A stretch of DNA of 63,224 nt, counting the filler, from Craspedostauros australis (lineage: Eukaryota): the NCBI GenBank assembly GCA_030167865.1. It is 7 parts of 7 records of this genome, joined end to end, with 100 filler letters (N's around TTAATTAATTAA, not from the genome) between each part and the next. Parts side by side here need not be neighbours in the genome. Positions count along the whole stretch, not along the records: positions 12,057 to 21,470 come from JALAGF010006657.1; 6 more parts are not named here. One strand, given 5' to 3'. A program made the position numbers and the translations under genes. Within the stretch, counting starts at the first letter, position 1. Each line of letters starts with the position of its first letter. The notes under the pieces are model-generated. The model saw only the letters and a program-made list of their open reading frames with translations. It had not been told where the DNA came from and searched no databases. Shown here piece after piece: positions 1 through 59,798 of the stretch.

Positions 1-1544
1 GAGCGGTGTGCGATGGTTCGACCAGAGGCGGGCATGCAAGAGTCTTTGGGCATACATACGCGGCGACGCCGGATCTGACTGAGTTTCGTCTCCTCTTGGC
101 GGTCGCTGCTGTCCGTGGACTCAAGGTGTATGGCTCCGATGTCACCAATGCTTTTGCGGAGGCGCCAGCAGGCAAGCAACGGTACTTCATGAACGTTGAT
201 GATCAGTACGCGTCCTGGTATCGTCACAAGTTTGGCACCGACATACCGCGAGGCCACGTCATCCCTGTCAACAAGAATTTGCAGGGCCATCCGGAGGCAC
301 CGCGACTATGGAGCAAGCACATCAATGGCATCCTCAAGGACTTGCGGTTCCTACCGACGACCCATGCTCCATGCCTCTACACAGGGTCCGTTGATGGTAC
401 TAAGGTGTTTGTGCTGCGACAGGTTGATGACTTTGCTGTGGCAGCGATCAACAAGACCGTCTTCGACAAGTTCTGCGACATGCTGGACAAGCGGCTCTTC
501 CAACCGATCACTCGTCAGGGTCTGATGGTGCACTACAATGGTCTGGACATTGCCCAAACGCAACATTATGTGCGTGTTCATTGCACTTCCTACGTCGACA
601 AAATGCTTGAGCGATACGAATGGCAAGGCATGAAGGCGACTCAGCGGCTCCCTATGCGGTTGGAGAACACGTATGTCAAGACGCTTGACAACGCCGAAGT
701 ACCGGCCACGGATGCGGAGCGCGAGAGTATCGCTGCAACGTTCAAGTTCAAGTACCGACAAGCCATTGGGGAGCTCATCTGGGCAATGATTTCTTGCCGA
801 CCGGACATTGCGTTTCCAGTGGTCAAGCTTTCTCAGTTCTCCACCAGTCCTGCGGCGGTGCACTTCGAAGGTGTGAAGTATCTCATTCGATACGTGGCGG
901 GCACTCGCGACTACGGCATCACCTACTGGCGAGTCCGACCGCTGGCGGATCTACCTGACATTCCAGCCCCACGGCCGCTTTCACCGCCTGACACCGAGGT
1001 GCATGATGCCAACCAGACGCGACCTGTTGGCGCTGCCACACTGTATGGCTTTGTCGACGCCGACTGGGGCGTGGATATTTGCCACCGCCGGTCCATTACT
1101 GGCGTGGTGAAAATGTTTGGTGGAGGTGCCATCGCATGGAAGACCAGGGTTCAGCCCACCATGTCCATGAGCAGCACCGAGGCGGAATTCATTGCAGCCA
1201 GTGACGCCGGCCGAATGGCGCTATGGCTGCGGTCGATTCTACATGAGATTGGCGTGGAGCAACAGTTCGCCACACTCATCTTCGAGGACAATCGCGGCGC
1301 AAGGCTGATGACGACAGCAAGTCAGCCTACCCGAAACTCGCGGCATATCGCAATCCGCGAGTTTGCAGTCCTTGACTGGGTGGAGCGCGATCTCTTAGCG
1401 TATCCCGACGTGCCGTCGGAGCTCAACGCATCTGATATCTGCACGAAACAGACGCCCGTCACACTGTTCTTCAGGCACATCGACCTCATTATGGGTCGCA
1501 ATGTGCCATCCTATGTGCACAGTTACAGGCGTCCGGATTTGTAA
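1..1544 (+). mobile_element. Ty1/copia (CoDi-type) pol 3' part: reverse transcriptase + RNase H, 5'-truncated by the window edge
   Basis: ORF 6..1544 has copia RT motifs (DVTNAF, LRQVDDF, CRPDIAF) and RNase H motifs (GFVDADW, SSTEAEF, IFEDN, RHIAIR, SDICTK). Confidence 0.95.
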
Positions 1545-6659: not shown

Positions 6660-7250
6660 CGGTGGGTGACCGAGCGTTGATACATCAAGTTTCACCAAGC
6701 TGCTTCCCCGGAATAACATCAAGCCGACAAGCTTCGTTTCACAATCGATCAACTGCGCCAAACGAAGAGAATGCAGTTGTCGCAATGATTCTCACAATTT
6801 TATAGAATAACAATGAGGGCTGGTCCTGCGTGCTCTACCAGATCGTCTCTATGGCGCCGTTGTTGTGCCATCTCCGAACGAATGAATCGCTTGCCTCGTG
6901 TCGGTAGTTAGATGGTGGACGATGAGATGATTCCAACAACACATCACGATTCGACTTGATTGACTTTACGGGATTGATTGATTCACGAACGCAACGACGG
7001 CTTCGGATTTCAAATTCAAAAATTGGCAATGACCGCAAATCAACGGCGATGGCACCAACACGAACAATTACGAGAGAAGAGAAGAAAGAAAGAAGCAACG
7101 ATGGTGGCATCTCCCGATCTCCTTTCTTTGCTATCCCCACTCTCTGCACAATTCGTATGGTTGGCGCCATGTCACACCCTGAGCACGTCGCATTCATGTG
7201 GGGAGACAGTAGCACCACAAGAGCAAGCTCAACAGAGAAGATCCGGCTCT

Positions 7251-11956: not shown

Positions 11957-12056
11957 NNNNNNNNNNNNNNNNNNNNNNNNNNNNNNNNNNNNNNNNNNNN
12001 TTAATTAATTAANNNNNNNNNNNNNNNNNNNNNNNNNNNNNNNNNNNNNNNNNNNN
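11957..12056. other. Artificial contig linker (same at 21471-21570, 30297-30395, 43056-43155, 47156-47255, 59235-59334)
   Basis: N44 + TTAATTAATTAA (stops in all six frames) + N44, repeated six times. Confidence 0.97.
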
Positions 12057-13472
12057 TGACGAGGTGCGGAAGGCGATGACGACGTCGGCTTGCCGACTGC
12101 GATCGGACTTCGTCTGCATGGCCAGGCGTAGCAGTACTGCGCCCGTGTTTGGTGGGAGGTCGTTGTTGCTGGCGTCTCGTGGGTCGAGAATGGTGACATC
12201 CGACCACGAGATACCGAAGGTTTCCGCCGCCCGTAGCCATCCCAGCCAGCCCATGAGGTTGATGACGCCCGCCATTGCTGCTGTCCGCCGCTGTTGTGGT
12301 GTGACTGCATGTTGGTATTGGTGGAGGAAGCTTCGGTCCATGAAGTGGACGTGACGAGAGAGCAAGGCGACCGAAGGTCGTGAGTCTTCGCCGAGTCGCG
12401 TGCGCATGCCCTGTGTCAGCATCGAATACCCGAGATGGTCCGTCGGGAGGCATGTGTCGACGGTGATGGGTCGCTGCTTGGCGTCGAGCATGGCGCGTTC
12501 GGGATGCGCGATGCACATATTCCACATGCCAAAGGCCGATGCCGCGCTGCGTAGCCCACGTACGGTGCTGAACTTGATGGCCTGGGCGTCGAGTGCGTTC
12601 TTGCAAGAGGGCGTCTGCGTGGCGTAGTGCTCCTGCACCCACATGATCGGGATCGTGTCGGAGCAGGGTGGCGATTGGATGTCGGGCGGTTGCATAGTCG
12701 GGATGCCATATTGCAGACCGAACTTGCGCAACACTTGAATCTTGCTGCTGTATGTGGTGAGTGTGCCGGCTGCCCAGTTGTGTGCCATGTCGATGATGCG
12801 CATGCGTTCTAGGCGGAGGAGGTGATAGTCTGTGGGGCTGGAGACCAGTTCCCGCTGGAGGTGCACTCGGACCGTGCATGCCTCACAGACAAAGAGACCC
12901 AGTATGCTGAGGTTGGGTGGCAGCACCAGACCTTTATGATTGCGGAGGCGCGTGCGGAAGGGAGGTCCGACTCGACAGCACAGTTTGTGGTATCGGGTGT
13001 AACATGGCTGGTAGGAGATACCGCCGTGAGTGAACCCAATGTCGGCGAAGTGACACTGGTGCGCGGCGGTGCGCCGATTGATACTCCTAGCACAGCCCGT
13101 GCAAACGCTCGGCGATCCGTTGGTGATGCCGCCGATTCCGGGAGCGGGGAGCAAAGTCCAATCTGGGAGGCGTGAGGGAACGAGTGTGTGGAGAGACGCG
13201 GAGGAGGAGGTTAGGAATGTTGAGAGGCGAAGAAGAAGAGAGAGAGAGACAGGTCGTCGTTGGTGAACACCCCAACCCGGATGAGATGACGTGAGAGTCG
13301 GACGAAAGTGCGTTGGAGCACTCTGGGGACGAGGATGACGAATCCGGTATCCAATGGTTGCTCCGCCCAGCATCCCAGCAGGAAGTAGATCAGCTGATAG
13401 GCCAGTTCTGGCGGCGGCGCCCACAGGGTGATGCAGTTCATGCAGCCCTCTGGGCTCCATGGGCGGTCCCAT
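12057..13472 (-). CDS. Tyrosine recombinase with N-terminal PHD-like zinc finger (C-terminus truncated)
   Basis: GWLGWLRAAETFGISWSDV (catalytic Arg box) and QTKSDR (catalytic Lys), preceded by WAAGTLTTYSSK and KFSTVRGLRSA (core-binding domain). Cys/His pattern CTGC..C..C...YHKLC..FVCEAC. Confidence 0.8.
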
Positions 13473-16400
13473 CGACGTAACAGTACAGTCGTGAGAGTGT
13501 CAGGGAAGGCGAGGGACGCGATCCGGGAGACATGCCGTTGTTGGAGTGGTGCCGGGGCCAGACATGCGGATAGGATCTGCGATGAGGTCGGTCTCTGATG
13601 GGCCGCATTAATCCAGATCCCACGGCTGAGTCCGTCCGTCCCTTCTGTGATGATGGCGGTGCCGGGGATGTGGATGACTTGGAGGTGGCACGACAGGTGA
13701 AGCTCGAGCTGCTTGATCTTTCGAACCATCTTGTGCAGTTCCGGTGATGTGGAAGTGCCTCCATCGACAACANNNNNNNNNNNNNNNNNNNNNNNNNNNN
13801 NNNNNNNNNNNNNNNNNNNNNNTGATGTGGAAGTGCCTCCATCGACAACACAGTAGGTGCACATGTTGTCGGTGAAGTAGAAGAAGGTGGCGCCGAAGAC
13901 GTCCATGGCAGATGCTGGGTTGTTGGCGACCTGCTGCAGAGTGCTGAGTAGGGTGCGTAGCTCCTTCCAGTTGGATGAGTGGCGTGTTGCCACGAGGGAG
14001 GACCATGTGCCCATCCACATACATGAGGGTTGACTGGGGAAGAGGATGGTGCCACCGGTGCCTGTGCCACTGCCGTCTCCAAAGCTGCTGACGAGAATGT
14101 CGGTGCGGGTCGCGCGACCGCTTCGTGCGGTATCGTTGGTGAGCGCTGATCGCCACCATTGGAGGTCTTGTGTGACTGCGAGGGTGATAGCTGTGTAGCT
14201 GAAGTATGGTAGATCAGGTTGGTCCCATTCGCCGGGATGGACGAGTGTGTAGAGAGCCCGCAGGTAGTTGCGACCGAGGTATGATGGTGTGGCCTCGGCT
14301 ACGCTCTCCAACATGCCCGCCAGAACCGCGAGGGCGAGTCGGGAGACTCTTGTAGGTGTGGCTTCGATGTAGTCCAACACCGCGATGATCTTATCCCGTT
14401 TCAGCGGAGGAATGCGTAGGCGTGGTGTGCTCGTGGTGTCGAAAATCAGTCCAGTGTACTTGACGACCTGGCCGGGTGGCGTGAGCTTGCCAGGGTGACA
14501 GAGTAGGCCACAGTCCACCGACAGGTCGAGGAAGGCCGACAATGCCGCTGCGGTCTTGTGGTGTGTGGGTCCATGGATGATGAAGTCATCACAGTGGGCC
14601 CACACGAGAGCGGCGGGCGATCCGTCGGGTCCGATGGCCACAAGTCCCTGTCCTCTGGTGTGATCATAGTCCAGGCCTTGGTCGAATGCGGTCCACCACA
14701 TATTAGATCGTTGCGTGCCTTGGTATATCGGAGAATGCTCGCGTAGTCGTCGGAGGAAGGCAGTTCCTAGCCTGCATGCGATAGCCGGTGATTGGCTAGA
14801 TCCCATGGGCAGCCCAGCATACTGGTACATTTTTCCCGAAATCGGATGTTGGATGCCGAGAAATCGCCTTTCGTCAGGACGCGTTCGAAATTGGTAAAAA
14901 TACTTCGAAGCGTCCACCACCGCCGACCATCCACCGTGATACATTTGTTTCAAAATGTCGCGGCTTTTTCGAAAAATGGTCGGGTCGGCCCCAATAAACT
15001 CGTTGGTGCGGTTTTCTCGCATGTTGGCGATGATGCGCCATTGATCGGGCTGCATGGGTTTCGGTAGAGCAAAGAGGGGAGCATTGACGACCACCGGATG
15101 GAGTGGGTCTTGCGGCTCGACGACGCCGAGGCTGAGTAGCTCGTCAACGAAGTCCGCTGCCACCTGTTGTTGTTCAGCGGTCATGTCGGTGTTGTCATGG
15201 TATCCTGATTCCGGAGTGCCCAGAAAATTCATCGGACTCCCTTCTCGTAGATGGTCCCAGTGTTGCTGAGGGAATTCCCACCAGAGCACTCGTAGCTGTT
15301 TGGGGTCGGGGTGTGTGTCCGTGTAGTTGGTGCGGTGAACGCGTAGGTCGTCGAGTCCATCCTCGAGTAGCGAAGCGGATCGTTCTCCGTACCGTGTACA
15401 AGCCTGCCGCAGGTTGCCCACACGGTGCCGATGCCAATCGCTGCCGGGAGCGAGGTCGGGTGGGGACCATTGATATTGGGAGTCGCCGTTGTTGTCCTCG
15501 GTGATGGTTGGCTGGGTCTGTCTTCGTCGTCTTCGTCGTCGTCGTCGTCGTCGTTCTGTCGTTGGTGTCGTAGGTTGGGAGTGTTCGGAGTGCCGATGTA
15601 CTTGGCGGGCCAAGTCCATCAGCGGTGTGGAGAGGTACTCCAGCAGATGTTGTGACGGAGTGTGGAAAAGCGCTCGCCATTTCGCCTGCTTCAGCACCTC
15701 TCCGGGGAGCGAGCTGCCCAGGGCTTTCCCTAACTCGTCTGGAAAGAGGCGTCGGACGCCTCTATCCGTCTGAATAAGGGCAAGCCCGTCCATTGGCATT
15801 GCAGATGTTGCGCTGTCAACGACCGACTGGGCGTTGCTCTTCGTTATATAGCATCGTCGAGGAACTCCGCAATGACGAAGACAGTTCGCCATGCTTCGCT
15901 CGGATGCAGGTTGGAGGTCTGGCCAGTCGATGCCAGATGCCGTCCACGTTGTTGCCGCCCTCACCACCACCGTATAAATCACCGATACCGCTCCACCCAT
16001 TCGTTGATTGGGGAGGGCCTTGATTTGTGTTCCATAACCGAAGTCCATCCAGAGCTTGCACTCCCGTTTGGAGGCTGCATGTTGTATCCATCCCAGGTGG
16101 GGTCCGGTCCATATCTCGATGATCAGCCGAGGTCGTAGGTTGACTTGGCAGTGGAGGACCCAACTACGCCATTCTGTATTCTGGACCCCATGGGCGACCA
16201 GAAAATCCACCGGAAGCTCGTTTAGAACCCGGTGAGACACTCTTGCCGTCGACCCAAGGAATTGGGTCGAGTCCGGGTACGTCCGAAACGTGTGGGGCAA
16301 GCCGTCGTCATGTGTGCAAAGGACATGCTCGAAAGCGGGCCAGATGCTGCTGGTCATGTGGAGACCGAAGTTCAGTGTTGCGTAGCGCAATGAACAGATA

Positions 16401-16576
16401 GAGGACGTGGGGAGTTGTTTCGTGGATAATGCAACAATATCTGCTAAGTTAGAGCTTAGTAGTATGTCGCTCGGGCCGTCTGGATTGTCGATGTGCGTGT
16501 GTGTGGTGTCTGGGATGGTCGGTGGTATCGGTGTTTGTTGGTTGGCGTTGAGGTGGGCACGAGTTGTGGGCAGCAC
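13211..16576 (-). CDS. Pol: C5-MTase-like N-domain + reverse transcriptase + DIRS-type RNase H + degenerate methyltransferase-like C-terminus
   Basis: RT: VVDASKYFYQF, YAGLPMGSSQSP, WAHCDDF (14585-14596). RNase H: FGDGSG, SSNWKEL, FTDN, HIPG...TDGLSR. C-terminal WAPPPE...VILVP resembles the DIRS NPP/lvvP region. The gap at 13773-13822 is an assembly overlap. Confidence 0.88.
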   Translation of the reverse strand: MLPTTRAHLNANQQTPIPPTIPDTTHTHIDNPDGPSDILLSSNLADIVALSTKQLPTSSICSLRYATLNFGLHMTSSIWPAFEHVLCTHDDGLPHTFRTYPDSTQFLGSTARVSHRVLNELPVDFLVAHGVQNTEWRSWVLHCQVNLRPRLIIEIWTGPHLGWIQHAASKRECKLWMDFGYGTQIKALPNQRMGGAVSVIYTVVVRAATTWTASGIDWPDLQPASERSMANCLRHCGVPRRCYITKSNAQSVVDSATSAMPMDGLALIQTDRGVRRLFPDELGKALGSSLPGEVLKQAKWRALFHTPSQHLLEYLSTPLMDLARQVHRHSEHSQPTTPTTERRRRRRRRRRRQTQPTITEDNNGDSQYQWSPPDLAPGSDWHRHRVGNLRQACTRYGERSASLLEDGLDDLRVHRTNYTDTHPDPKQLRVLWWEFPQQHWDHLREGSPMNFLGTPESGYHDNTDMTAEQQQVAADFVDELLSLGVVEPQDPLHPVVVNAPLFALPKPMQPDQWRIIANMRENRTNEFIGADPTIFRKSRDILKQMYHGGWSAVVDASKYFYQFRTRPDERRFLGIQHPISGKMYQYAGLPMGSSQSPAIACRLGTAFLRRLREHSPIYQGTQRSNMWWTAFDQGLDYDHTRGQGLVAIGPDGSPAALVWAHCDDFIIHGPTHHKTAAALSAFLDLSVDCGLLCHPGKLTPPGQVVKYTGLIFDTTSTPRLRIPPLKRDKIIAVLDYIEATPTRVSRLALAVLAGMLESVAEATPSYLGRNYLRALYTLVHPGEWDQPDLPYFSYTAITLAVTQDLQWWRSALTNDTARSGRATRTDILVSSFGDGSGTGTGGTILFPSQPSCMWMGTWSSLVATRHSSNWKELRTLLSTLQQVANNPASAMDVFGATFFYFTDNMCTYCVVDGGTSTSXXXXXXXXXXXXXXXXXVVDGGTSTSPELHKMVRKIKQLELHLSCHLQVIHIPGTAIITEGTDGLSRGIWINAAHQRPTSSQILSACLAPAPLQQRHVSRIASLAFPDTLTTVLLRRWDRPWSPEGCMNCITLWAPPPELAYQLIYFLLGCWAEQPLDTGFVILVPRVLQRTFVRLSRHLIRVGVFTNDDLSLSLFFFASQHS

Positions 16577-16606
16577 AGAAAGGAGAGAGACAAAGCAAAC
16601 ACAGGG

Positions 16607-17533
16607 TTAGGTATCATCCTCTTCTCCGCCTCCGCGCTTCGCGATTGCTTCCTGCAGGATGCGAGTGATAACGTCGGCGGCCTTCTCGCCTTGGTTCACA
16701 CATTTCGCGACCTGTTTGGCTTTCGCCATCGCCACCTTCTTCTTGAAGAGATACCCGAATGGGCATCCGCTGTCGCGGATCTCATGGACCTTGCTGGATC
16801 CTCCGCAGTGCTTGCACTTCTTCCGACCTGTTTCGGTTGGAGCAGTGTCAGTGTCATCCTTCGTTGCCGAGGAGGGACCGAGGGTGCCGATTGCGCGCTG
16901 CTGAAATTTCTCCAGGACCTTCAGGTTGCACCAACCGCCTCTTGCTCCTTCGCGTACGATGATGTACGTGCGAAAGATCATGAGATTGCGGGAGGACGCG
17001 AAGTTGCGTGCGTCAAAGAGAGCCTTGGCGTAGTGCTCGAGGTATACCTCGGCAGAGTCCTCCCATCCGTTGGCTGTCTTGAAGGCCTCCTCTTGGAGTT
17101 TGAGGAGGAGTTCGTGACAGTACATCAAGAACAGCTTGAGGATGGGTCGCCGTCCTCCGCCTTGCTGGTAGAGCGTGATTTGCTCATCAGTGTAGCAGCC
17201 GTGGCGGAGAATGTGACCCACATTGTTGAGATAGCGGGTCATCACGTTGTCGCAGATGCTGTTGAAGTCACCCGCGAGTTCGCTGAGGTCTTCAGAGGTC
17301 TTGATGCGGCCGAGAGCGTGGCGAGTCTTGGTGCGCCAGTTGGAGTCGGTGGCGATGAGACCGGCAGATCGAGCGGTTTGGTTGCGGATGTCTCCGAAGG
17401 CGGAGGCGAGTTCTTCAATGGATGTGCGTTCATCAGTGACCTTACCTGGTTGGCTGGTGACGTCGATGGCGGCTTTGGCGAGTTCAGTCTGGATCTCTTG
17501 GCTGGCGTGTGGCGGGGCGAGGTGTTTGAGCAT
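16607..17533 (-). CDS. Gag-like ORF, C-terminal part with zinc-knuckle-like motif; in frame with the upstream ORF
   Basis: KCKHCGGSSKVHEIRDSGCPF; separated from the upstream ORF only by TGA CGC. Confidence 0.6.
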   Translation of the reverse strand: MLKHLAPPHASQEIQTELAKAAIDVTSQPGKVTDERTSIEELASAFGDIRNQTARSAGLIATDSNWRTKTRHALGRIKTSEDLSELAGDFNSICDNVMTRYLNNVGHILRHGCYTDEQITLYQQGGGRRPILKLFLMYCHELLLKLQEEAFKTANGWEDSAEVYLEHYAKALFDARNFASSRNLMIFRTYIIVREGARGGWCNLKVLEKFQQRAIGTLGPSSATKDDTDTAPTETGRKKCKHCGGSSKVHEIRDSGCPFGYLFKKKVAMAKAKQVAKCVNQGEKAADVITRILQEAIAKRGGGEEDDT

Positions 17534-17536
17534 GCG

Positions 17537-18898
17537 TCATTCGTTGTCGATGGCTTCGCCGAAGATCTGTTTCTTATCGCCCTTGGACGAGTCTTCGCCC
17601 AGGAACTGTTCGATACCCATGCTGGTGGAGCCAGACGGGGCCCGCTCTGGGAGAGGGGCTGTCGCCGCTTGGGACTCGGCGGGTGTGTTTCCTGGGTATG
17701 TTGCTCCTGCCGGGTGTGGGCGGTCGTGTGACATCGGCTGGCTGTAGATGGGTGCGGTTGTCGTTGAGGCACGGAGGTAGGCATCGGCTTCAGCGAAGGA
17801 AGCACACCGAACAACTCGGGCGGTGCTTCCGGTGCCTGCTTGAGCGATGGCCTCAGCCGCCGAGGTGTACACCCCGGGGCGTCGTCCATCGATCGCCACA
17901 TACCATTCGGTGTCCGTGGTTGGGGCAGGCGCAGGAGCGAGACTCGGGGAGGGACGGCCATGTTGGAGCAGTTGCGTGATTTGCGCCTGCTGATTCGCCA
18001 GTGCCCGCAACATTGCTTGCCTGGTCTCCTCTGACTTGCGTTGGTGGAGCTCCATCGCTTCACGGTTGAGGGATGCTTGATGGCGCACCACATGCATGAG
18101 TTCGTCGGCTGCGGTGGTGGCCAGAGCAGGAGGAGAGTAGTGTGTTCCGTGCTGGGAGGAGAGGGCTGGACGGGAGACGACCGGGACGGGGCGCATCAAT
18201 GGTGCCGGGGGTGTGCGACCGGATGCCACTGGTTGGGTGGTCGGTGGCGGGCCAGCGGGGTTGGTCTTGATGCGGACGGGTGGCGTCGGTTGCACATCGA
18301 TGCCCGGTTGTACGTCGCTGCCGGGTCGTCCTGCCGGCTTGGTGTCGAGGTCGAATCCAACCACTCCGACGCTTTTGGAGTCGCTATCGTTGCGAGCAGC
18401 GGCATCCGTGATATCCATCTTGCCGACAGCTTCGAGATCGCGGAGCGCGGCGGCACGAGTAGAGTCGTATGCGGCGCGGCTCTGGTGGCTGCTCTCGATG
18501 AGATCGCGTCGGGGTGCTCCGCCAAGCGTGGTTGTGTCGAGGCATTGGTACACTCCCGCGAGTCCACGTCGGTCAGGGTTGCGGCGAAGGGCATGGTGGT
18601 TGCTGCGGCGGCACTCGCTGGCCAAGTTAGCGCAGAGTAGAGTGTGGCCGTCCTCCGACTTAGAGGAGAGGCGGACCAGACAGATGCGGTCGTCTGCCAT
18701 GACGTGTCCAATGGCCATTCCGATCCCGACTTGGTCGAGGAGAGTGTCGCTGCCCATGTCACCAGAGCGGGCGGATCCGCTGGCTACCGGGGATACAGTC
18801 TCGACTGTGATCCCGGGCCCGGAATCAGCCGGAGGCATGCTGGCGAAAGCGGAGGCTTCAGACGCAAGAAGCGAGGAGAGATTGGGTGGGTCGGTCAT
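17537..18898 (-). CDS. Gag-like ORF, N-terminal part: Cys/His motif plus RNase H1 N-terminal (viroplasmin-like) hybrid-binding domain
   Basis: CLVRL...CANLASECRRSNHH. WYVAIDGRRPGVYTSAAEA...CASFAEADAYL fits the yYaV..Gr.pGvy..w.e....F.t..eA..yl pattern. Confidence 0.65.
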   Translation of the reverse strand: MTDPPNLSSLLASEASAFASMPPADSGPGITVETVSPVASGSARSGDMGSDTLLDQVGIGMAIGHVMADDRICLVRLSSKSEDGHTLLCANLASECRRSNHHALRRNPDRRGLAGVYQCLDTTTLGGAPRRDLIESSHQSRAAYDSTRAAALRDLEAVGKMDITDAAARNDSDSKSVGVVGFDLDTKPAGRPGSDVQPGIDVQPTPPVRIKTNPAGPPPTTQPVASGRTPPAPLMRPVPVVSRPALSSQHGTHYSPPALATTAADELMHVVRHQASLNREAMELHQRKSEETRQAMLRALANQQAQITQLLQHGRPSPSLAPAPAPTTDTEWYVAIDGRRPGVYTSAAEAIAQAGTGSTARVVRCASFAEADAYLRASTTTAPIYSQPMSHDRPHPAGATYPGNTPAESQAATAPLPERAPSGSTSMGIEQFLGEDSSKGDKKQIFGEAIDNE

Positions 18899-19673
18899 GG
18901 TGAGGACTCAAGAAGAAGGTGAAAAGCGTGAAGTGGTGTAGAAAGGCGTTGTTTTGTTGCTAGGTTACCCCTGAGCAAGCGTTGCGGGAAGCGTTATCCG
19001 AAGCGAGGAGTGTGACAATTCTGTTGTCTTTTCCAAATTGTGCGCGTTTCGGTTGTTGCTTGTCTCATCGCTTCTCTTGCTTGTTGTTTCTTTTCTCTCT
19101 TTCTCCTTTCTCTTGCAGGCTCCTCAGTCTCCTCGTGTTCGATCTCTTTCGTTTCTCATTTGCTCGAAGCGGGTCTTGGTCCGGCTTCACTATCCGATTG
19201 CATCTCCTCTGATGGGTTTGCAATTGGTGTCCTCGATAGCGCATTCCGTGTTTTTCGAGTTTTTGTTTGTGTGTCGATTTGTCGCCGCGGGCGATCATTT
19301 TGTGAGCTCCGCATTGCCATCAAATGGCCGTTGTCGCACATGGTTCGAATTGTCCTTACTTAGGAATATGGCCCATGTGTGGCCGTTATAACCGTTAAGT
19401 TTGGGTCTCCATTGCGGGGTGATGCACATGGCTTGCATTCCCGCTTGTGTATCCCGTCTTCTTCCTGCGGATGATGCCCTGGAGTCGTATGGGTCGTCTG
19501 TATCAACCAGTCAATTATGTCTAGAAGTGACCCAATTGTTTGTGTTTGTGGTACCACTCTTCTGGAATCGCTAAATTGAAAAGGCGTACGTAGACCCAGT
19601 AGGTTTTGAATTCGCGTAAGAGTCAGTACTGAAACCTACGGTTATCGCCAACGGTTTCGGAACTCGCGAACGT

Positions 19674-20417
19674 ATGCAACAACCAATGACAGAAAACATA
19701 AAATTTAAAGACAAGACAAAGCGTCGAAGGAGCATCATTGCACCAGCAAAGGCAAGCAAAGACGGAGCTTCCGGTGGCGAAAAAACGCGTAAGAAACAAG
19801 TGAATTTCGGAGGAGTTACGGTCTCAAGCAACGACAAACAAGGCATCGCCAAAAAGCAGACGATGTGGACAGCAGCAGAGGAACGGAAAGCCAAGAGGAA
19901 GATGACGGAAGGGAGTGCCAAGCCGTACGCCGAGTGCGTGGGAGGAGGAGACTCGATCAATACGGCATGGAAGGTGATCCGCAACTACCTGAACAGTGAG
20001 AGAGGGGACATGGAGACGATGGAGGAGTGGATAGACGTGTTTACCAAAGGCAGAGCATGCCATTGGGACGCCGCCACAAACCAGAAAGTCCAAGAGACAG
20101 AAGCAAGGCTGCTGGCAACGCGGGCTGAGGTGTTCCCACCAACGTTTTGGGACGAAGGTTGCATCATCGGGAGCATCCTCACCAACCCATGGATAGTCGC
20201 TCGCATTGTCAACACGAGCTCAGCGTCGGAATCTCCGGAGAAGCGCAGGAAGACTGAGACGACACGTGAAGCCAAGACAAAGGCACCCAAGAAGAAGGCA
20301 CCAGATAAGGAGAAGACAAGTGGCGGAAAGGGAAAGGACGCCAACAAACAAGTCCAAGCCGACACCACTAGAGTCGCTGTCAAGGCAAACAACAAAGACC
20401 AAGCAAAGAACTGTTAG
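19674..20417 (+). CDS. Hypothetical Lys-rich protein (247 aa), divergent from the DIRS-like element
   Basis: Intronless ORF with basic low-complexity ends and a globular-looking centre (WKVIRNYL...FPPTFWDEG). No family recognised. Confidence 0.4.
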   Translation: MQQPMTENIKFKDKTKRRRSIIAPAKASKDGASGGEKTRKKQVNFGGVTVSSNDKQGIAKKQTMWTAAEERKAKRKMTEGSAKPYAECVGGGDSINTAWKVIRNYLNSERGDMETMEEWIDVFTKGRACHWDAATNQKVQETEARLLATRAEVFPPTFWDEGCIIGSILTNPWIVARIVNTSSASESPEKRRKTETTREAKTKAPKKKAPDKEKTSGGKGKDANKQVQADTTRVAVKANNKDQAKNC

Positions 20418-21699
20418 GGTTTACAGTAACCTGTAACCTTAGGGTAACAACCGTGTTATTTCAAAAAGTGACATTTCAACTCAATCGAAGACTGGTGATT
20501 ACAGCTACTGATCTGTATCCATGCACTGGCATGTTGTATTAGCGCACGCTAAATCTCTAACAATAGCGACACCCGTCGACCAATCAGAAATATCCACTTT
20601 TCTTACCTTTTCCGTTCCGAACGGAAATTTTGGTCGAAAATCCGTTGTGTCAAATTTGTGTCGCATTTCGCGTCGCAGGAATCGTTTTCCCGTCAAACAC
20701 AGTTCCAAAATGTCGTGGAAATTGATTTCTTGCCAAGATGAACCAATCTGCCCAATCAGGACAGACTTGGATCTTGGGTGTGACATGTGCGAATCTTACC
20801 NNNNNNNNNNNNNNNNNNNNNNNNNGTGCGAATCTTACCAAGACCTTCTCAAGTGAATACGATCAATCGTGTGATCGTACTACTAGCAACATCGTGAGAA
20901 GATGTAATTCACAACACGGGCTATCGCGATGTTTTGTTCATTGACCTTTTGCACCTCATCTTCACGCAGTAACACACACATTTGCCGTGTTGTCTCCGTG
21001 TTAATTTCACTTGCAATTTGCATGAGACCTGTCATGTCTCTCTCATGCTCACAGTTCTCAAGAANNNNNNNNNNNNNNNNNNNNNNNNNNNNNNNNNNNN
21101 NNNNNNNNNNNNNNNNNNNNNNNNNNNNNNNNNNNNNNNNNNNNNNNNNNNNNNNNNNNNNNNNNNNNNNNNNNNNNNNNNNNNNNNNNNNNNNNNNNNN
21201 NNNNNNNNNNNNNNNNNNNNNNNNNNNNNNNNNNNNNNNNNNNNNNNTGACAATCCATCCATCCTTCATCCCTCGTCCATCCACGAGCGATCCCTTCACC
21301 TTCCATCACGTGACGACGTGATTTCGGCTTTCCTTCGGCTTTCTCGCATTCGCAGAACGCCCTCCTTTCGGTTCCCCTGCTGAGTCCGGGCCTTCCCACT
21401 CAGCCATCCAAGACTTCCTGCAGCACCCTCCCGCACCAGAAGACGATTCAGTCAGTGCACTCCAGCCTCANNNNNNNNNNNNNNNNNNNNNNNNNNNNNN
21501 NNNNNNNNNNNNNNTTAATTAATTAANNNNNNNNNNNNNNNNNNNNNNNNNNNNNNNNNNNNNNNNNNNNGCAGGCCAAACATCCGAAACTGAACTAGTG
21601 AGTTGAGACTACTGAATTAAAAGGAGTATTCTATAGCCTATATTACTGTATTACAATGTGGTAAATTGGAGCATGGTGCTCTCTTGACTGCTTCATCTG

Positions 21700-47155: not shown

Positions 47156-48034
47156 NNNNNNNNNNNNNNNNNNNNNNNNNNNNNNNNNNNNNNNNNNNNT
47201 TAATTAATTAANNNNNNNNNNNNNNNNNNNNNNNNNNNNNNNNNNNNNNNNNNNNACTACTACTACTACACGAACACTACCAGGGCGAGCACAAGCATGG
47301 AACACAACAGCGAGTGCGCATGGCATTGGCGAGGAAAGTTGTGAGATGGAGCGAAANNNNNNNNNNNNNNNNNNNNNNNNNNNNNNNNNNNNNNNNNNNN
47401 NNNNNNNNNNNNNNNNNNNNNNNNNNNNNNNNNNNNNNNNNNNNNNNNNNNNNNNNNNNNNNNGAGATCATGTCGCAGATGCTAACGTGTATTTAACGTG
47501 TACCAAACGAACGACTCCTTCCGGAGCAGGTCCGTGACTGATCACCCGGCGATAAATACTTCGGAACAGCATGGAACCTTCTGAAAAACAACCAGGAGTT
47601 TCATGGGGTCGACTCATAGGACTTTAGCATATCTTTGACTGTACATAAAACTTAAAATAGGATCTAACTTAAAAATCGATCGGTTAATTATTTATATGGA
47701 GATTACGAGGATTACGAATATGTGCTTGGTTTGGATCTACTAGATAAAAGTTATTGAGTCCCATGACAAAGTGCAGGTCGACTCACTGATCGGGCTCTTA
47801 ACGTTAATGCAATGAAACTCTGGAGCGGTATGTCGTGTCTTTGCGCTCTGCATCCCAGTAGGTCGTATTGTGTTTGTGATAGCTCTGGAGCACGATGATA
47901 GGCAGATGTACAATACAACATGAAGCAATGCAAGTGCTCATCGACACAGCACATACCACATGAAGAGTGCAATAGCGGAATTGTAGTGTTGTTTATCGTG
48001 TTGTTGTGCTGTACATGTTGGAATCGTGCGCAAA

Positions 48035-49950
48035 CTATCGCGGTGCCGCACTGTTGTTGGGCACGGTCGGTTGCTGAATCCACTGTTGCTGCGCCGCGGC
48101 GCCGGCCGGTTGTGGTGCGGGAGCTTGCGCAACGTACTGCGGCGGTTGTGTCGCATGCAGAGGAACGGCTCCCTGATGTTGCGGAATGTACATGGCTTGG
48201 TATTGCGGAGCCGGTGCTGGTTGTTGGATGGCATGTGTATGCTGTTGCTGGTACTGCGGTGGCAAGGCTGCCGTTGGTGCTTGCTGTGATGCCTGCTGCT
48301 GTCGCGGTGGTTGTTGTGCGTGCTGTATGTATTGCACCTGTTGGACTGGTTGTTGTTGTTGTTGTTGTTGCTGTTGTTGTTGCTGTTGTTGTTGCTGTTG
48401 TTGTTGCTGTGGCTGTTGTTGCGGTTGCGCTGGCTGTGGAATTTGCTGCTGGTAGTGCGTATGCTGCGTGGCAGGTTGATGTTGATGTGTCGGCTGCGCT
48501 GCCTGCGGTGGTGGTGCCTGTTGTTGTTGTTGCTGCTGTTGTTGGAGTTGTTCCTGCGACTGCTGCGCGTGATGATGGTGATGCTGCTGTTGTTGTTGCT
48601 GCATCTGATGATGGAGCATGCTGGCATCGAGCATGGAATGTGCGACTCCAGTCGCTCCCGGTCCCAATGCCTGAGCCGGCGCCGCCTGCGGGATGCCTGC
48701 CATCGGCAATCCAGGTGGCATGCCTGCTGGCACGTTCATGGCTGCGGCCGCCGCCACTGCTTCCGCTGCCGGTATCGGCGCCGGCTTCGGAGTCGTGACG
48801 CGGGGTACTATGTCAATGAGAAAGTCATACACCTCGCTTTCGCCGACGGCCGCATGGATGTCCTGCCGCTGCAACGTCCGTCGGCGGTTGCGCTCCGTGT
48901 GACGCCATGCTCGGAAGGACATATCCTTGATCAGCAACTCGCAGGCCTTGCTCATGAGCACCGGCGCTTCTCCCGATATCATGAACTTGACCGTCGATCT
49001 GAGCTCATTCAAACCGTTGTCGCCGGTCTCCGCCGCAGCCGCCCGCAATCTCTCCTTTTCCAGCTCCTGCATGATGAACTCCTCGCTCTTCATGATCTTC
49101 TTGATGCGAGCCAAAGGCAGAGTCTGGATCTTCCAGTTTTCGGTGGCTGTTGCGCAATGATCGAAAAAGTATTGCAAAGTATAGTGCGGTGTAGTATCGT
49201 ATGATATTGTGCATCATTTGAAAATTGAGACATATCATAGATGCATAGTCATCAATGGAGAGGCATCGATGGATAGACATGGATGCCAATGCAGAGAGCC
49301 AAGATTCAGGATGAAAGTGTGAGACCAGAGATTCGTATCGGAAGATACATTGTTCGACAATGCGTTGACAACTTTGGATGCGGAGTGCATGGTACCATCA
49401 TTGCACATGTACGCGTTGCCGTGATATACTTGCGTCTGCTGTGCATGATTATCCAAGAGTTGAAGAGATGTAGTGCCGGCATTCGCGAAACAGAATCCTC
49501 TCGAATGCTCCGATCGGATCTGTCGCGTATCTTCGGAAACCTTCACAGTTCGTGCTTGTGCCAACTACAGCCATGTCTCGTGTCATATGGATCGTCGCAT
49601 CCATGCAGTGCGTGGTTGCATCCATCATGATGACGCTGATGATACTAGAATCCTCTGTTGTCTCTGCATATTACTTGCTTGCACGCTTCCTTGTTTCGAT
49701 CGCTTGGTTGATGGCCTCCACGACCGTGCATCATGTGGTACCCGCAGCATTGTTCGTTTTTTTCGTGTGGATGGATTTCCGGTCGGAACACTTGTTCGTG
49801 CGTGCGTACGTACACCCACTCTATTCACGACTGTGGACCCATCAAAACACACGCACCACAGTCGCTGATGGTTGATGTGAACTCACCTGGGTCGATCTGC
49901 CCGATGGCCTGCGTGGATTTGTCCCACATCTCTTCCAATCCTTCGTCCAT
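48035..49950 (-). CDS. NF-YC: Nuclear factor Y subunit C (HAP5-like) with a polyQ C-terminus, ~391 aa
   Basis: Exons 49950-49887 and 49146-48035 (phase-1 GT-AG intron). Histone fold LPLARIKKIMK...MISGEAPVL...RRRTLQRQDI...YDFLIDIVPR. Confidence 0.92.
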
Positions 49951-56101: not shown

Positions 56102-57475
56102 TCATGGATTCCCCTTGCAGACGTTGTCGCCGATACACTCTCCATCGCCAATCTCGTCTGAGGTCGTCTCGCAGGCACTCGTGCCCACGCAAGAATTGTC
56201 ACCGATTTCCGTGGCGCTGCTGGTGGAGAAGCACGCACGGTACCCAAGGCACGACTCTTCGCCCACGTCGGCGCTATTGGAACGACAAGCATTGTCGCCG
56301 ATGCAGGAGTACGGCTTGATCAGACCAAAGTTCGAGTTGCACGCATCTGCGCCCTTGCAGGCACCATCCGTGATCACACCCAAGCTCTCTTCGCACGCAG
56401 ATGGTCCCACACAGGAGTTGTCACCAACTGCGCGATAGCTGAAGGTGCAGGCTCTCTCGCCAAGGCAAGATCCTGTCCCAACACTCTCGTAGTTGTAGAC
56501 ACAAGCGCTGATCCCAATGCAGGATCTGGTATGGATGTCGCCTTTGTTGCTCGCACAAGCGTCTTCGCCAATGCAGGAGCCCTTGGCGATGTGTCCAATG
56601 TTTCTATCACAAGCTCTCTCGCCGTTGCAGGAATTGTTCTCGACGTATCCGACGGAGCTGGCGCATGCGTCCTCACCGTTGCAGGAAACGAATCCAAAAC
56701 CGATGTTGGTGGTTGCATCTGTTCCCAACATGCAAGCTCCATCTCCGTTGCAGGAGTTGGCACAGACTCGCACATGTCGGTGGCTGGCCCAGCCGCATGC
56801 ATCGCGGGAGGCACCATCTGGTGTGACGCAGCAGTTGGCATTGGCCGATGCACAGGCTGCGGTGACGCCAGCAGCCGTTCCGGTGAAACAAAGCTCTGAA
56901 GCCTTGACCGATTTCGATGCCTTTCCCAAATCGGGAGACTTTGCCGACTTACCGCTTTCTCCCGAAGCGCCAGACTTGGAATCTTTTGCCAGCTTGCTTC
57001 TTGCGGATTTCGAAGACTTGAGATCGCGCGTTGCAGCCTCATCTTGGGCATCCGGATGGGAAGCATCGGCACCGAACGCCACGGCAGTGGAATCCACAAC
57101 CGCGCTGCTTCGCAAACGACCGGCGTCAACCAGTTGAGAAGGGTCCTGTCCATCAAACGATGATGACGACGCCTGCGGTTGACTGACAGGATTTTGAGCT
57201 TGCCTACCTTGCGTCACGAATGATTCAAAGTTGATCGCGTTCGATCGCTCCCATGGTTTCACATCATCGTGCTTGTGCACGTGGTTGGTGATATCCGCAC
57301 TTTCTTTGGTGAATCCGTGTATGAGCTTCTGACGGGATGCATGCACATCGTCAACGTCGGCGATGTGATCATCAGCTGCGACGGAGTCTTCCAAGAGAGC
57401 ATCGACGCCATGAAAGATGAGGCTGTTTGCCACAACCAAAGCGATGATGTCGTTCTTCATGCTCAAGATAGTCAT
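56102..57475 (-). CDS. Secreted protein with RXL site, KxxK cluster and 18-aa Cys repeats (457 aa)
   Basis: Signal peptide; RDL followed by KSSK...KLAKDSK...KSAK...KASKSVK; about twelve SCxGxxAC repeats. Confidence 0.8.
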   Translation of the reverse strand: MTILSMKNDIIALVVANSLIFHGVDALLEDSVAADDHIADVDDVHASRQKLIHGFTKESADITNHVHKHDDVKPWERSNAINFESFVTQGRQAQNPVSQPQASSSSFDGQDPSQLVDAGRLRSSAVVDSTAVAFGADASHPDAQDEAATRDLKSSKSARSKLAKDSKSGASGESGKSAKSPDLGKASKSVKASELCFTGTAAGVTAACASANANCCVTPDGASRDACGWASHRHVRVCANSCNGDGACMLGTDATTNIGFGFVSCNGEDACASSVGYVENNSCNGERACDRNIGHIAKGSCIGEDACASNKGDIHTRSCIGISACVYNYESVGTGSCLGERACTFSYRAVGDNSCVGPSACEESLGVITDGACKGADACNSNFGLIKPYSCIGDNACRSNSADVGEESCLGYRACFSTSSATEIGDNSCVGTSACETTSDEIGDGECIGDNVCKGNP

Positions 57476-59234: not shown

Positions 59235-59798
59235 NNNNNNNNNNNNNNNNNNNNNNNNNNNNNNNNNNNNNNNNNNNNTTAATTAATTAANNNNNNNNNN
59301 NNNNNNNNNNNNNNNNNNNNNNNNNNNNNNNNNNTATTAATAGTCAATCCAACCAGTCAACGGAGATGCGCGATGCCACGCGCGTGCACGGATCGCTTCA
59401 TCCACGAATCGGTGAAAGCCAAATAGCATTTCGCGACTGTCGCAACATGAACATCACCAAGGAATTGAACCAAAATGCTCCGCAGAGAAGATTCAGTTCC
59501 AGTTGTATTGGAGTGCTATGCCCACTGATCGAACCTCTTCAACGTCGGAGCAACAAAAGCTGATCTGGCCATTGGGTGACGATCGATCCTCGCTCCATCC
59601 TGTCATAAAATCAATCAATCAATCATCAGTTCAGACAACCACACCAGCAGCCACAACGACAACGATCTGTTTGCCCGCTCGTACACGTGCCCAAGATAAC
59701 CGAATACAAATAATAACGGACAACATTCACACCACTTCACGTGCCATTTGACCAACACCACCATCACTAACAACAGCAACAACAACACAATCGTAGTC

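Follow-up and report, generated by a model that had tools for sequence, protein, structure and literature searches.

A probable DIRS-like retrotransposon with a methylase-like Pol domain in the diatom Craspedostauros australis and its relatives in aquatic metagenomes

What kind of mobile element would join a reverse transcriptase (RT) and a tyrosine recombinase to a domain resembling a cytosine methyltransferase? The question is raised by contig JALAGF010006657.1 of the diatom Craspedostauros australis (assembly GCA_030167865.1), which occupies positions 12057-21470 of the 63,224-nucleotide (nt) stretch of concatenated contigs analyzed here (the window). Three consecutive open reading frames (ORFs), namely a gag-like ORF1, ORF2 (pol) and ORF3 (recombinase), lie at 12057-18898, and all coding frames of the element are on the minus strand. 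A sequence-only reading of the locus had proposed a tyrosine-recombinase retrotransposon with gag-like, RT-RNase H and recombinase ORFs in the order of DIRS elements, and both the order and the type of element are borne out by the comparisons given below. The element is very probably a nearly intact, incompletely assembled copy of a DIRS-like (tyrosine-recombinase) retrotransposon, an assignment that rests on gene order, motifs and folds, with the reference groups compared by description.

Gene order, reverse transcriptase and recombinase

The layout is not peculiar to the window. A scan of metagenome contigs yielded 102 confirmed places, from which 80 loci were kept, and the layout recurs in these loci. 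Synteny was measured by tblastn with the pieces of the window element, using only loci with enough flanking room. ORF3 was found 3' of RNase H on the same strand in every one of the 50 loci that offer 700 nt of room or more, and the N-terminal, methylase-like domain of ORF2 was found 5' of the RT in 40 of the 42 loci with at least 1000 nt. Of the 23 loci with enough upstream sequence, 15 have a stretch there that resembles the second part of ORF1 (ORF1b), and several of the remaining 8 still have a long ORF1 that can be aligned with MAFFT. ORF3 follows RNase H in 50/50 loci, which rules out that an RT gene and a recombinase gene merely came to lie side by side by chance. Among the relatives the unit spans 8-10 kb and encodes 643-845 amino acids (aa) in ORF1, about 1100-1190 aa in ORF2 and about 515-635 aa in ORF3, which overlaps ORF2; ORF3 of the window likewise overlaps the end of ORF2 in a different frame, and the relative frames of ORF1 and ORF2 vary among relatives. 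Pfam reported no protease or DDE integrase family in any ORF of the window and the relatives scanned.

Residues 420-1131 of ORF2 match 317 database proteins at E<=0.001 (best match 51% identical, E 5e-235), most of them 1000-1200 aa long, and a profile of the methylase-like domain matches 1077 clusters (50% identity) at E<=0.001, 683 at 1e-10 and 274 at 1e-30. Judged from the sequences, the 317 homologues and the gene order kept in metagenome loci place the element far beyond chance. The family is large, with members in metagenomes from the sea and other waters and in the genome of at least one diatom. Only one host is named for a family protein, the diatom Cylindrotheca closterium, in which the protein is recorded as an unnamed product. 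A host gene on another contig of the window has its best named relatives in the diatoms Detonula and Pseudo-nitzschia, and after these in a dinoflagellate and a pelagophyte.

The RT of the window matches Pfam RVT_1 with E 4.2e-5 and 23.8 bits, below the cut-off of 29.6, and PF00078 is precomputed for most of the 120 ORF2 relatives listed. Searched against the PDB, the family profile finds the Ty3 RT best (E 2e-4) and the MMLV RT next. The catalytic residues D565, D673 and D674 are invariant in 25/25 aligned sequences. The sequence-only reading had pointed out HCDD in place of YxDD, and this motif is indeed present, as one form of a variable family signature: in the 25 sequences, the first position holds H (13), F (7), W (4) or Y (1), and the second holds V (20) or C (5, namely the window and relatives P0001-P0003 and P0023). 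The family signature thus reads as [HFWY][VC]DD in this alignment, HCDD marking the subgroup of the window. In the RNase H-like region, assigned from its motif pattern alone, D844, E882, D913 and D991 are invariant in 25/25 aligned sequences. The region is followed by a conserved C-terminal tail that has no Pfam match.

ORF3 runs off the contig end at 12057, and the fold was therefore examined in the closest full-length relative, that of locus L028 (45% identical). Its model has a mean predicted local distance difference test score (pLDDT) of 85.1. Residues 274-523 match Cre with Z 14.1 (root-mean-square deviation, rmsd, 3.3 Å over 178 residues), an archaeal Xer with 13.8, XerH with 12.5 and lambda integrase with 10.0-10.4; most further hits with Z>=8 belong to tyrosine recombinases, type IB topoisomerases or Ndc10, a protein with the recombinase fold. 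Foldseek also returned Cre (E 4e-5), over about 400 columns that include the core-binding domain. The alignment of ORF3 proteins shows WLGWLR..E with an invariant Arg, ETKS with an invariant Lys, H..YRRG, EHGRW and a conserved Tyr. Besides the invariant Arg and Lys, the second Arg, the second His and the Tyr are conserved in at least 90% of the sequences, and the first His is the majority residue. By its modeled fold, ORF3 of the family is a tyrosine recombinase. One of the 120 ORF3 relatives listed was named "integrase" by its source.

Element ends and the possibility of an LTR-type element

The termini were sought in relatives of the element. Inverted repeats of at least 40 nt were found in none of 11 related loci, whereas direct repeats with a conserved spacer were found in three to four: loci L014, L072, L008 and probably L050 carry two identical direct repeats of 727-913 nt between ORF3 and ORF1, parted by a conserved C-rich spacer of 17-22 nt, with a purine run just upstream of the first repeat. 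In the window, the spacer motif has chance-level matches only. Contigs L003, L009, L016 and L058 each end with an exact 111-127-nt copy of their start and assemble as circles of 8.4-10.2 kb, as is expected of collapsed terminal repeats, tandem copies or true circles. The two-repeat stretch may be the recombination or circle junction of the element. By analogy, it would fit an arrangement A-coding-B-A-B, as in SymbioDIRS, walked twice by the assembler.

The same repeats could belong to an LTR (long terminal repeat) retrotransposon of the Ty3/gypsy lineage in which the integrase has been swapped for a recombinase, with linear DNA bearing two LTRs instead of the split repeats of the DIRS type. 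A purine run ahead of identical repeats resembles the polypurine tract that precedes a 3' LTR, the closure of four contigs into circles through overlaps of k-mer length is what collapsed LTR elements produce, and Ty3 is the closest solved RT. However, the C-rich spacer is always present between the repeats, which is unexpected for independent LTR elements and fits an internal A-s-B split-repeat junction, and the RTs of DIRS elements are near Ty3/gypsy anyway. We consider such an LTR-type origin unlikely, and the DIRS-like assignment is kept in what follows.

Two further observations concern the repeats of relatives. In L047, a 303-nt piece of the ORF3 end is present at 2558-2860 and 6913-7214; it recurs some 700 nt past a complete ORF1, no ORF2 intervening, and may mark a deletion derivative beside a full copy. 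Tandem arrays occupy the non-coding stretch after ORF3 in L003 (8026-8436, 27-nt unit) and in L016 (59-339 and 10107-10342, 11-nt unit of the GGCGCCTATG type).

Domains added to Pol, the recombinase and Gag

Conservation in the family includes the first 400 residues of ORF2, and it is here that a C5-methyltransferase-like domain had been proposed from the sequence. An AlphaFold2 model, built from window residues 57-420 and 30 relatives, has a mean pLDDT of 84.3. With Foldseek, M.HhaI ranks first (E 2.7e-12), followed by Dnmt2, M.HaeIII and M.MpeI and, lower, by DNMT3A and DNMT3B (E 3e-8 to 1e-7). A second fold comparison aligns M.HhaI with Z 21.6 and rmsd 3.0 Å over 261 residues, within chain residues 3-327; all 50 entries listed by Z are cytosine-5 methyltransferases or their homologues, with no DNMT3 among those listed. 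PF00145 matches 9 of 31 members (E<=10, best E 2e-7), the window copy not being among them, and the family profile finds M.HhaI in the PDB with E 9e-7, over motifs VI-VIII and IX. A search of the ESM Atlas with the methylase-like and RT part gave best scores of 0.85, which are leads only, and one related cluster of 130 members, 64% of which carry PF00145. On the strength of these searches and of the model, the domain is homologous to C5 methyltransferases and retains the whole fold, with a Rossmann-type part and a target-recognition part.

The homology proposed for this domain thus stands, while methylase activity is unlikely. At the motif IV site, the window reads LPVDFLVA and then HGVQ, and the family has a strand PVDLLVV followed by variable residues. 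The Pro-Cys of motif IV is present in 0/31 and 0/220 family sequences covering the site (the 220 derive from 262 aligned stretches, with 265 proteins submitted), and the invariant or nearly invariant columns of the domain hold no conserved Cys. Because Pro-Cys is missing in every family sequence examined, the domain is most likely not an active canonical methylase. The 1077 clusters at 50% identity indicate that it has been retained for a long time after the loss of the nucleophile.

An enzyme that is active on DNA, RNA or a hybrid through a non-canonical nucleophile, and that marks the element's own complementary DNA (cDNA), would agree with several of these features. The model shows, with high confidence, a complete fold that takes in the target-recognition subdomain; the motif VI Glu is nearly invariant, as E-x-W; the motif VIII Gln and Arg and a motif IX-like RRL...E...G.P are retained in most members; and conservation across so many clusters argues for a selected function. 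Yet the place of Pro-Cys after strand beta-4 is without it throughout and no other Cys is conserved, motif X Gly-Asn has become Thr-Ser in the consensus (on our interpretation of the alignment), the window copy has also lost the motif VIII Gln and Arg, and DIRS1-class elements with inactive methylase domains are already known from the available text of PMC3537659. Such an active enzyme is quite improbable, and we return to a domain that has most likely lost canonical activity.

The recombinase bears a zinc-finger-like region ahead of its core-binding domain. Its eight ligands are invariant in 32/32 aligned sequences, in the pattern C-x2-C-x12-C-x12-17-C-x4-H-x2-C-x29-30-C-x2-C. The ligands of PHD fingers are spaced C-x2-C ... 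C-x2-4-C-x4-5-H-x2-C ... C-x2-C. Both C-x2-C pairs and the C-x4-H-x2-C of the present finger fit this spacing, but its third and fourth ligands are 12-17 residues apart and not 2-4. Pfam matches are all below their cut-offs (PHD_NSD in 13/32, best E 0.0038; PHD in 10/32, best E 0.039), with neither found in the window copy. Among structures, the Pygo2 PHD appears weakly (Z 3.6, rank 40) in the L028 list, which is dominated by the recombinase domain, and the best PDB profile hit of the finger is the B-box of MID1 (E 0.022). It is safest to describe the region as a putative conserved zinc finger of the cross-brace type. Of the PHD-like finger that had been proposed, the invariant Cys4-His-Cys3 ligand set is confirmed, while the PHD identity is weakly supported.

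ORF1, as aligned in 18 sequences, has a conserved Cys/His cluster near its N-terminus, then a linker that varies among members, and towards the C-terminus a conserved block with a C-x2-C...H...C knuckle that is common to most of the 17 aligned relatives. In the window this ORF appears to be split by a premature or read-through TGA, since the relatives read through that point as one ORF; the TGA sits inside a conserved block where their alignment is continuous. Pfam gives no match on the whole window ORF1 and ORF1b, and a sequence search of ORF1 against solved structures gave nothing meaningful.

An RNA:DNA hybrid-binding domain had been proposed in Gag as well. It is clear in three relatives and sub-threshold in the window, where the 61-aa piece, searched alone, matches PF01693 with E 0.0081 and 16.8 bits against a cut-off of 21 (profile positions 2-44 of 44). 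Above the cut-off are 3 of 28 relative ORF1 or ORF1-like proteins, those of L050 (two copies, E 1.3e-19), L053 (E 3.4e-20) and L070 (E 1e-5), with whose matches the 44-residue segment of the window aligns. As the domain is strong only in these three and the linker is Ser/Lys-rich and of low complexity in the other aligned members, it appears to be an occasional passenger of the family Gag, with a degenerate version in the window.

Several points weigh against a nearly intact DIRS-like element. RNase H was not detected by Pfam or by PDB profile search. Of the six catalytic residues of the recombinase, the window ORF3 keeps two, the box I Arg R423 (in 12216-12245) and the Lys K464 (in 12099-12116); the contig ends 17 residues past the Lys, and the His-x-x-Arg, the His/Trp and the Tyr (4/6) lie off it, so that this ORF3 cannot be judged whole. 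Pfam Phage_integrase matches 0/9 ORF3 proteins scanned (the window and eight relatives), none of the 120 ORF3 relatives listed has a precomputed Pfam domain, and a sequence search of ORF3 against solved structures gave nothing meaningful. The window copy may be dead because of the premature TGA in ORF1 and the want of an ATG ahead of the first domain of ORF2, the first ATG of which is at 16357, inside the methylase-like domain. No terminus, target-site duplication or circular form of the element came to light, and the two-repeat junction of the relatives could equally be an LTR-LTR junction. Loss of Pro-Cys would also be strictly compatible with unusual chemistry or with a role in binding S-adenosylmethionine.

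By analogy with DIRS, PAT and Ngaro elements, the full-length RNA would be packaged by the ORF1 protein and then reverse-transcribed by ORF2, and the DNA product, either closed or with terminal direct repeats, would be inserted by the ORF3 recombinase without a DDE integrase. The methylase-like domain may act as a non-catalytic module on Pol that binds nucleic acid and possibly flips bases, and the finger may assist the recombinase in choosing or holding its target. A bolder and rather doubtful proposal is that the family is a separate, old and very abundant lineage of tyrosine-recombinase retroelements in marine protists, in which an independently captured bacterial-type C5 methyltransferase became a non-catalytic, base-flipping or methyl-cytosine-sensing module of Pol, accompanied by a chromatin-reading finger and a hybrid-binding domain of Gag. 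If true, the element would have its own means to recognize or shield its cDNA and to pick chromatin for insertion, and would be a retrotransposon counterpart of DNMT3L-like pseudo-enzymes.

Genomic setting and comparison with known systems

The contigs of the window are joined by linkers of the form N44-TTAATTAATTAA-N44, which carry a stop codon in all frames, and features on the two sides of a linker are not implied to be adjacent in the genome (Table 1). Within ORF2, a run of 50 N (13773-13822) and the duplicated 28-nt flank beside it introduce 26 in-frame codons, which are missing in all 24 aligned relatives and mark an assembly artefact. Neither blastn nor tblastn found a second copy of the element within the stretch. 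Upstream of ORF1, the ORFs at 19571-20799 have no Pfam family. A 422-codon frame at 16463-17731 (+), antisense to ORF1 and ORF1b, is without support, and we attribute it to the element's strong GC skew.

Elsewhere in the window, an open frame at 3-1544 (+) that runs off the start of the stretch encodes a Copia-type RT (Pfam RVT_2, E 2.3e-15) and is a second, unrelated retrotransposon. The other frames are an ankyrin-repeat protein of 998 aa with a BTB domain at 25954-28950 (+), a 1440-aa protein with an AAA_16/STAND-type NTPase domain at 38731-43053 (+), a frame with a histone-fold match (PF00125, E 4.7e-9) at 48035-49093 (-), and a protein with four DUF7640 repeats (E 9.9e-45) at 56102-57475 (-).

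Table 1. Features of the element and its surroundings in the window, with the repeat stretches of related loci
Feature	Coordinates	Strand	Details
Upstream untranslated region	18899..20000	-	5' limit undefined; GC drops and strand skew shifts between ~18900 and 20400
ORF1, first part (gag-like)	17537..18898	-	ATG at 18898; 453 aa; in-frame TGA at 17537-17539
Cys/His cluster, ORF1 N-terminus	18593..18685	-	C...C...C...H common to relatives (MAFFT alignment of 18 sequences); no profile match
RNase H1 N-terminal (RNA:DNA hybrid-binding, Cauli_VI)-like segment	17774..17905	-	in variable linker of ORF1; apparently degenerate in this copy
ORF1, second part (ORF1b)	16607..17536	-	same frame; 309 codons; TAA at 16607-16609; conserved helical block; CCHC zinc-knuckle-like motif 16763-16816
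ORF2 (pol)	13211..16606	-	1131 codons stop to stop; same frame as ORF1, single TAA between
C5 cytosine-methyltransferase-like domain with target-recognition subdomain	15347..16438	-	motif IV position 16193-16216; motif VI 16109-16135; motif IX-like 15716-15754
Reverse transcriptase	14387..15199	-	motif A Asp in VVDASKYFYQF 14888-14920; HCDD 14585-14596; HPGK 14486-14497
RNase H-like region	13607..14104	-	DGS 14048-14083; E in NWKEL 13958-13972; TDN 13865-13882; TDGLSRG 13619-13642; broken by the N50 gap artefact at 13745-13850
Conserved ORF2 C-terminal tail	13211..13606	-	~130 aa (W...PPPE...VPRV); invariant W1046, P1064-P1066, P1094, R1095
ORF3, tyrosine recombinase	12057..13499	-	open at 3' end, cut after ...AFRTSS
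Cys4-His-Cys3 zinc-finger-like region	12843..13133	-	C133, C136, C149, C166, H171, C174, C205, C208
Linkers	11957-12056, 21471-21570, 30297-30396, 43056-43155, 47156-47255, 59235-59334		
Repeat-spacer-repeat stretches of related loci	L014 4705-6198; L072 3096-4568; L008 7224-8280; L050 7706-8702		

How does the element compare with those already described? In DIRS-1 of Dictyostelium the terminal repeats are inverted, an internal complementary region is present, and RNase H is followed by a Dam-like methylase domain. With it the element shares the RT and probably the RNase H, the tyrosine recombinase and a gag-like ORF1; it differs from the DIRS1 group proper in the absence of inverted repeats in the related loci and in that Pfam finds no adenine-methylase family in ORF2. 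The latter also sets it apart from PAT, in which a Dam-like methylase follows RNase H. Ngaro- and PAT-like elements have the order gag - RT/RNase H - recombinase and direct repeats, and in both respects they resemble the present family. They are also alike in having no protease or integrase, according to the available text of PMC4157794. In the descriptions available to us, Ngaro- and PAT-like elements are not reported with a C5-methyltransferase-like domain before the RT, a C4HC3 finger or a hybrid-binding domain of Gag. RepeatModeler labels some repeats of the diatom Chaetoceros muelleri "LTR/Ngaro" (available part of bioRxiv 10.64898/2026.04.27.720831).

A nearer likeness is found in the ALOG-type DIRS1-like element of Ectocarpus, whose recombinase bears a zinc ribbon and whose methylase is inactive (Iyer and Aravind 2012, PMC3537659, in its available text). 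That element is also from a stramenopile and, at about 9 kb, has terminal direct repeats, a zinc-knuckle Gag, RT/RNase H, an inactive methylase and a zinc-binding module before the recombinase. As described there, its inactive methylase is of the N6-adenine type, whereas the domain here is of the C5-cytosine type and lies at the N-terminus of Pol; its zinc module is an FCS-type ribbon with an ALOG insert, whereas that of the present family is a C4HC3 finger, probably of the cross-brace type.

The closest described kind, compared by description, is SymbioDIRS-Dnmt3 of Symbiodinium, a DIRS-like element whose Pol includes a Dnmt3 that retains the key residues and is capable of de novo CG methylation (de Mendoza et al. 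2018, PMC5890265, in its available text). In both, the Pol ORF joins a C5-methyltransferase-type domain to an RT and, here by motif pattern, an RNase H, the recombinase has an ORF of its own, and the repeats are direct instead of inverted (A-coding-B-A-B in SymbioDIRS); the RT of SymbioDIRS also fits Pfam poorly, as does that of the window. The present element could on these grounds be merely a member of that group, defined by a captured eukaryotic Dnmt3 and by CG methylation, with nothing new about it. The same source, however, describes conserved catalytic residues and a recombinase labeled by Pfam Phage_integrase, whereas here Pro-Cys is absent from all 220 sequences and the recombinase, which bears a C4HC3 finger, escapes Pfam. 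In the fold ranking, the methylase-like domain is closer to M.HhaI, Dnmt2 and DNMT1 than to DNMT3, whose structures match more weakly than M.HhaI in Foldseek and do not appear among the 50 entries listed by Z. The hosts of SymbioDIRS are, by that account, dinoflagellates, and the one named host here is a diatom. Membership of the SymbioDIRS-Dnmt3 group is very improbable, and the element is better placed as a DIRS-like retrotransposon of a family that is apparently undescribed.

Retrotransposons with DNA-methylation machinery are a recent topic with few cases, comprising SymbioDIRS, SymbioLINE, Gypsy-Dnmt3 and elements with Dam, MBD or TET domains. Among the known DNMT-bearing elements listed in a 2026 preprint about retrotransposon adenine methylases, none is named from a diatom, and a literature search that excluded subscription journals, Repbase and bioRxiv supplements turned up no diatom or other stramenopile recombinase retrotransposon described as carrying a C5-methylase-like domain. 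In the collections searched, these 8-10 kb units stand as hypothetical or unnamed proteins, and the recombinase and most domains escape Pfam; a description and profiles of the family would improve repeat annotation in diatom and other plankton genomes. The sequence-only reading had not recognized the combination of domains from described families. That holds for the exact set, which did not appear in the literature searched, but not for its parts, each of which has a precedent of its kind in the available texts of PMC5890265 and PMC3537659. As far as we searched, there is no precedent for a Pol that begins with a bacterial-looking and probably dead C5 methylase in combination with a recombinase bearing a C4HC3 finger and a Gag that occasionally holds a hybrid-binding domain. 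To the known systems the family would add a captured cytosine methylase that was long retained after the loss of its nucleophile, and it raises the question of what use a methylase fold may be to a retroelement that is unable to methylate.

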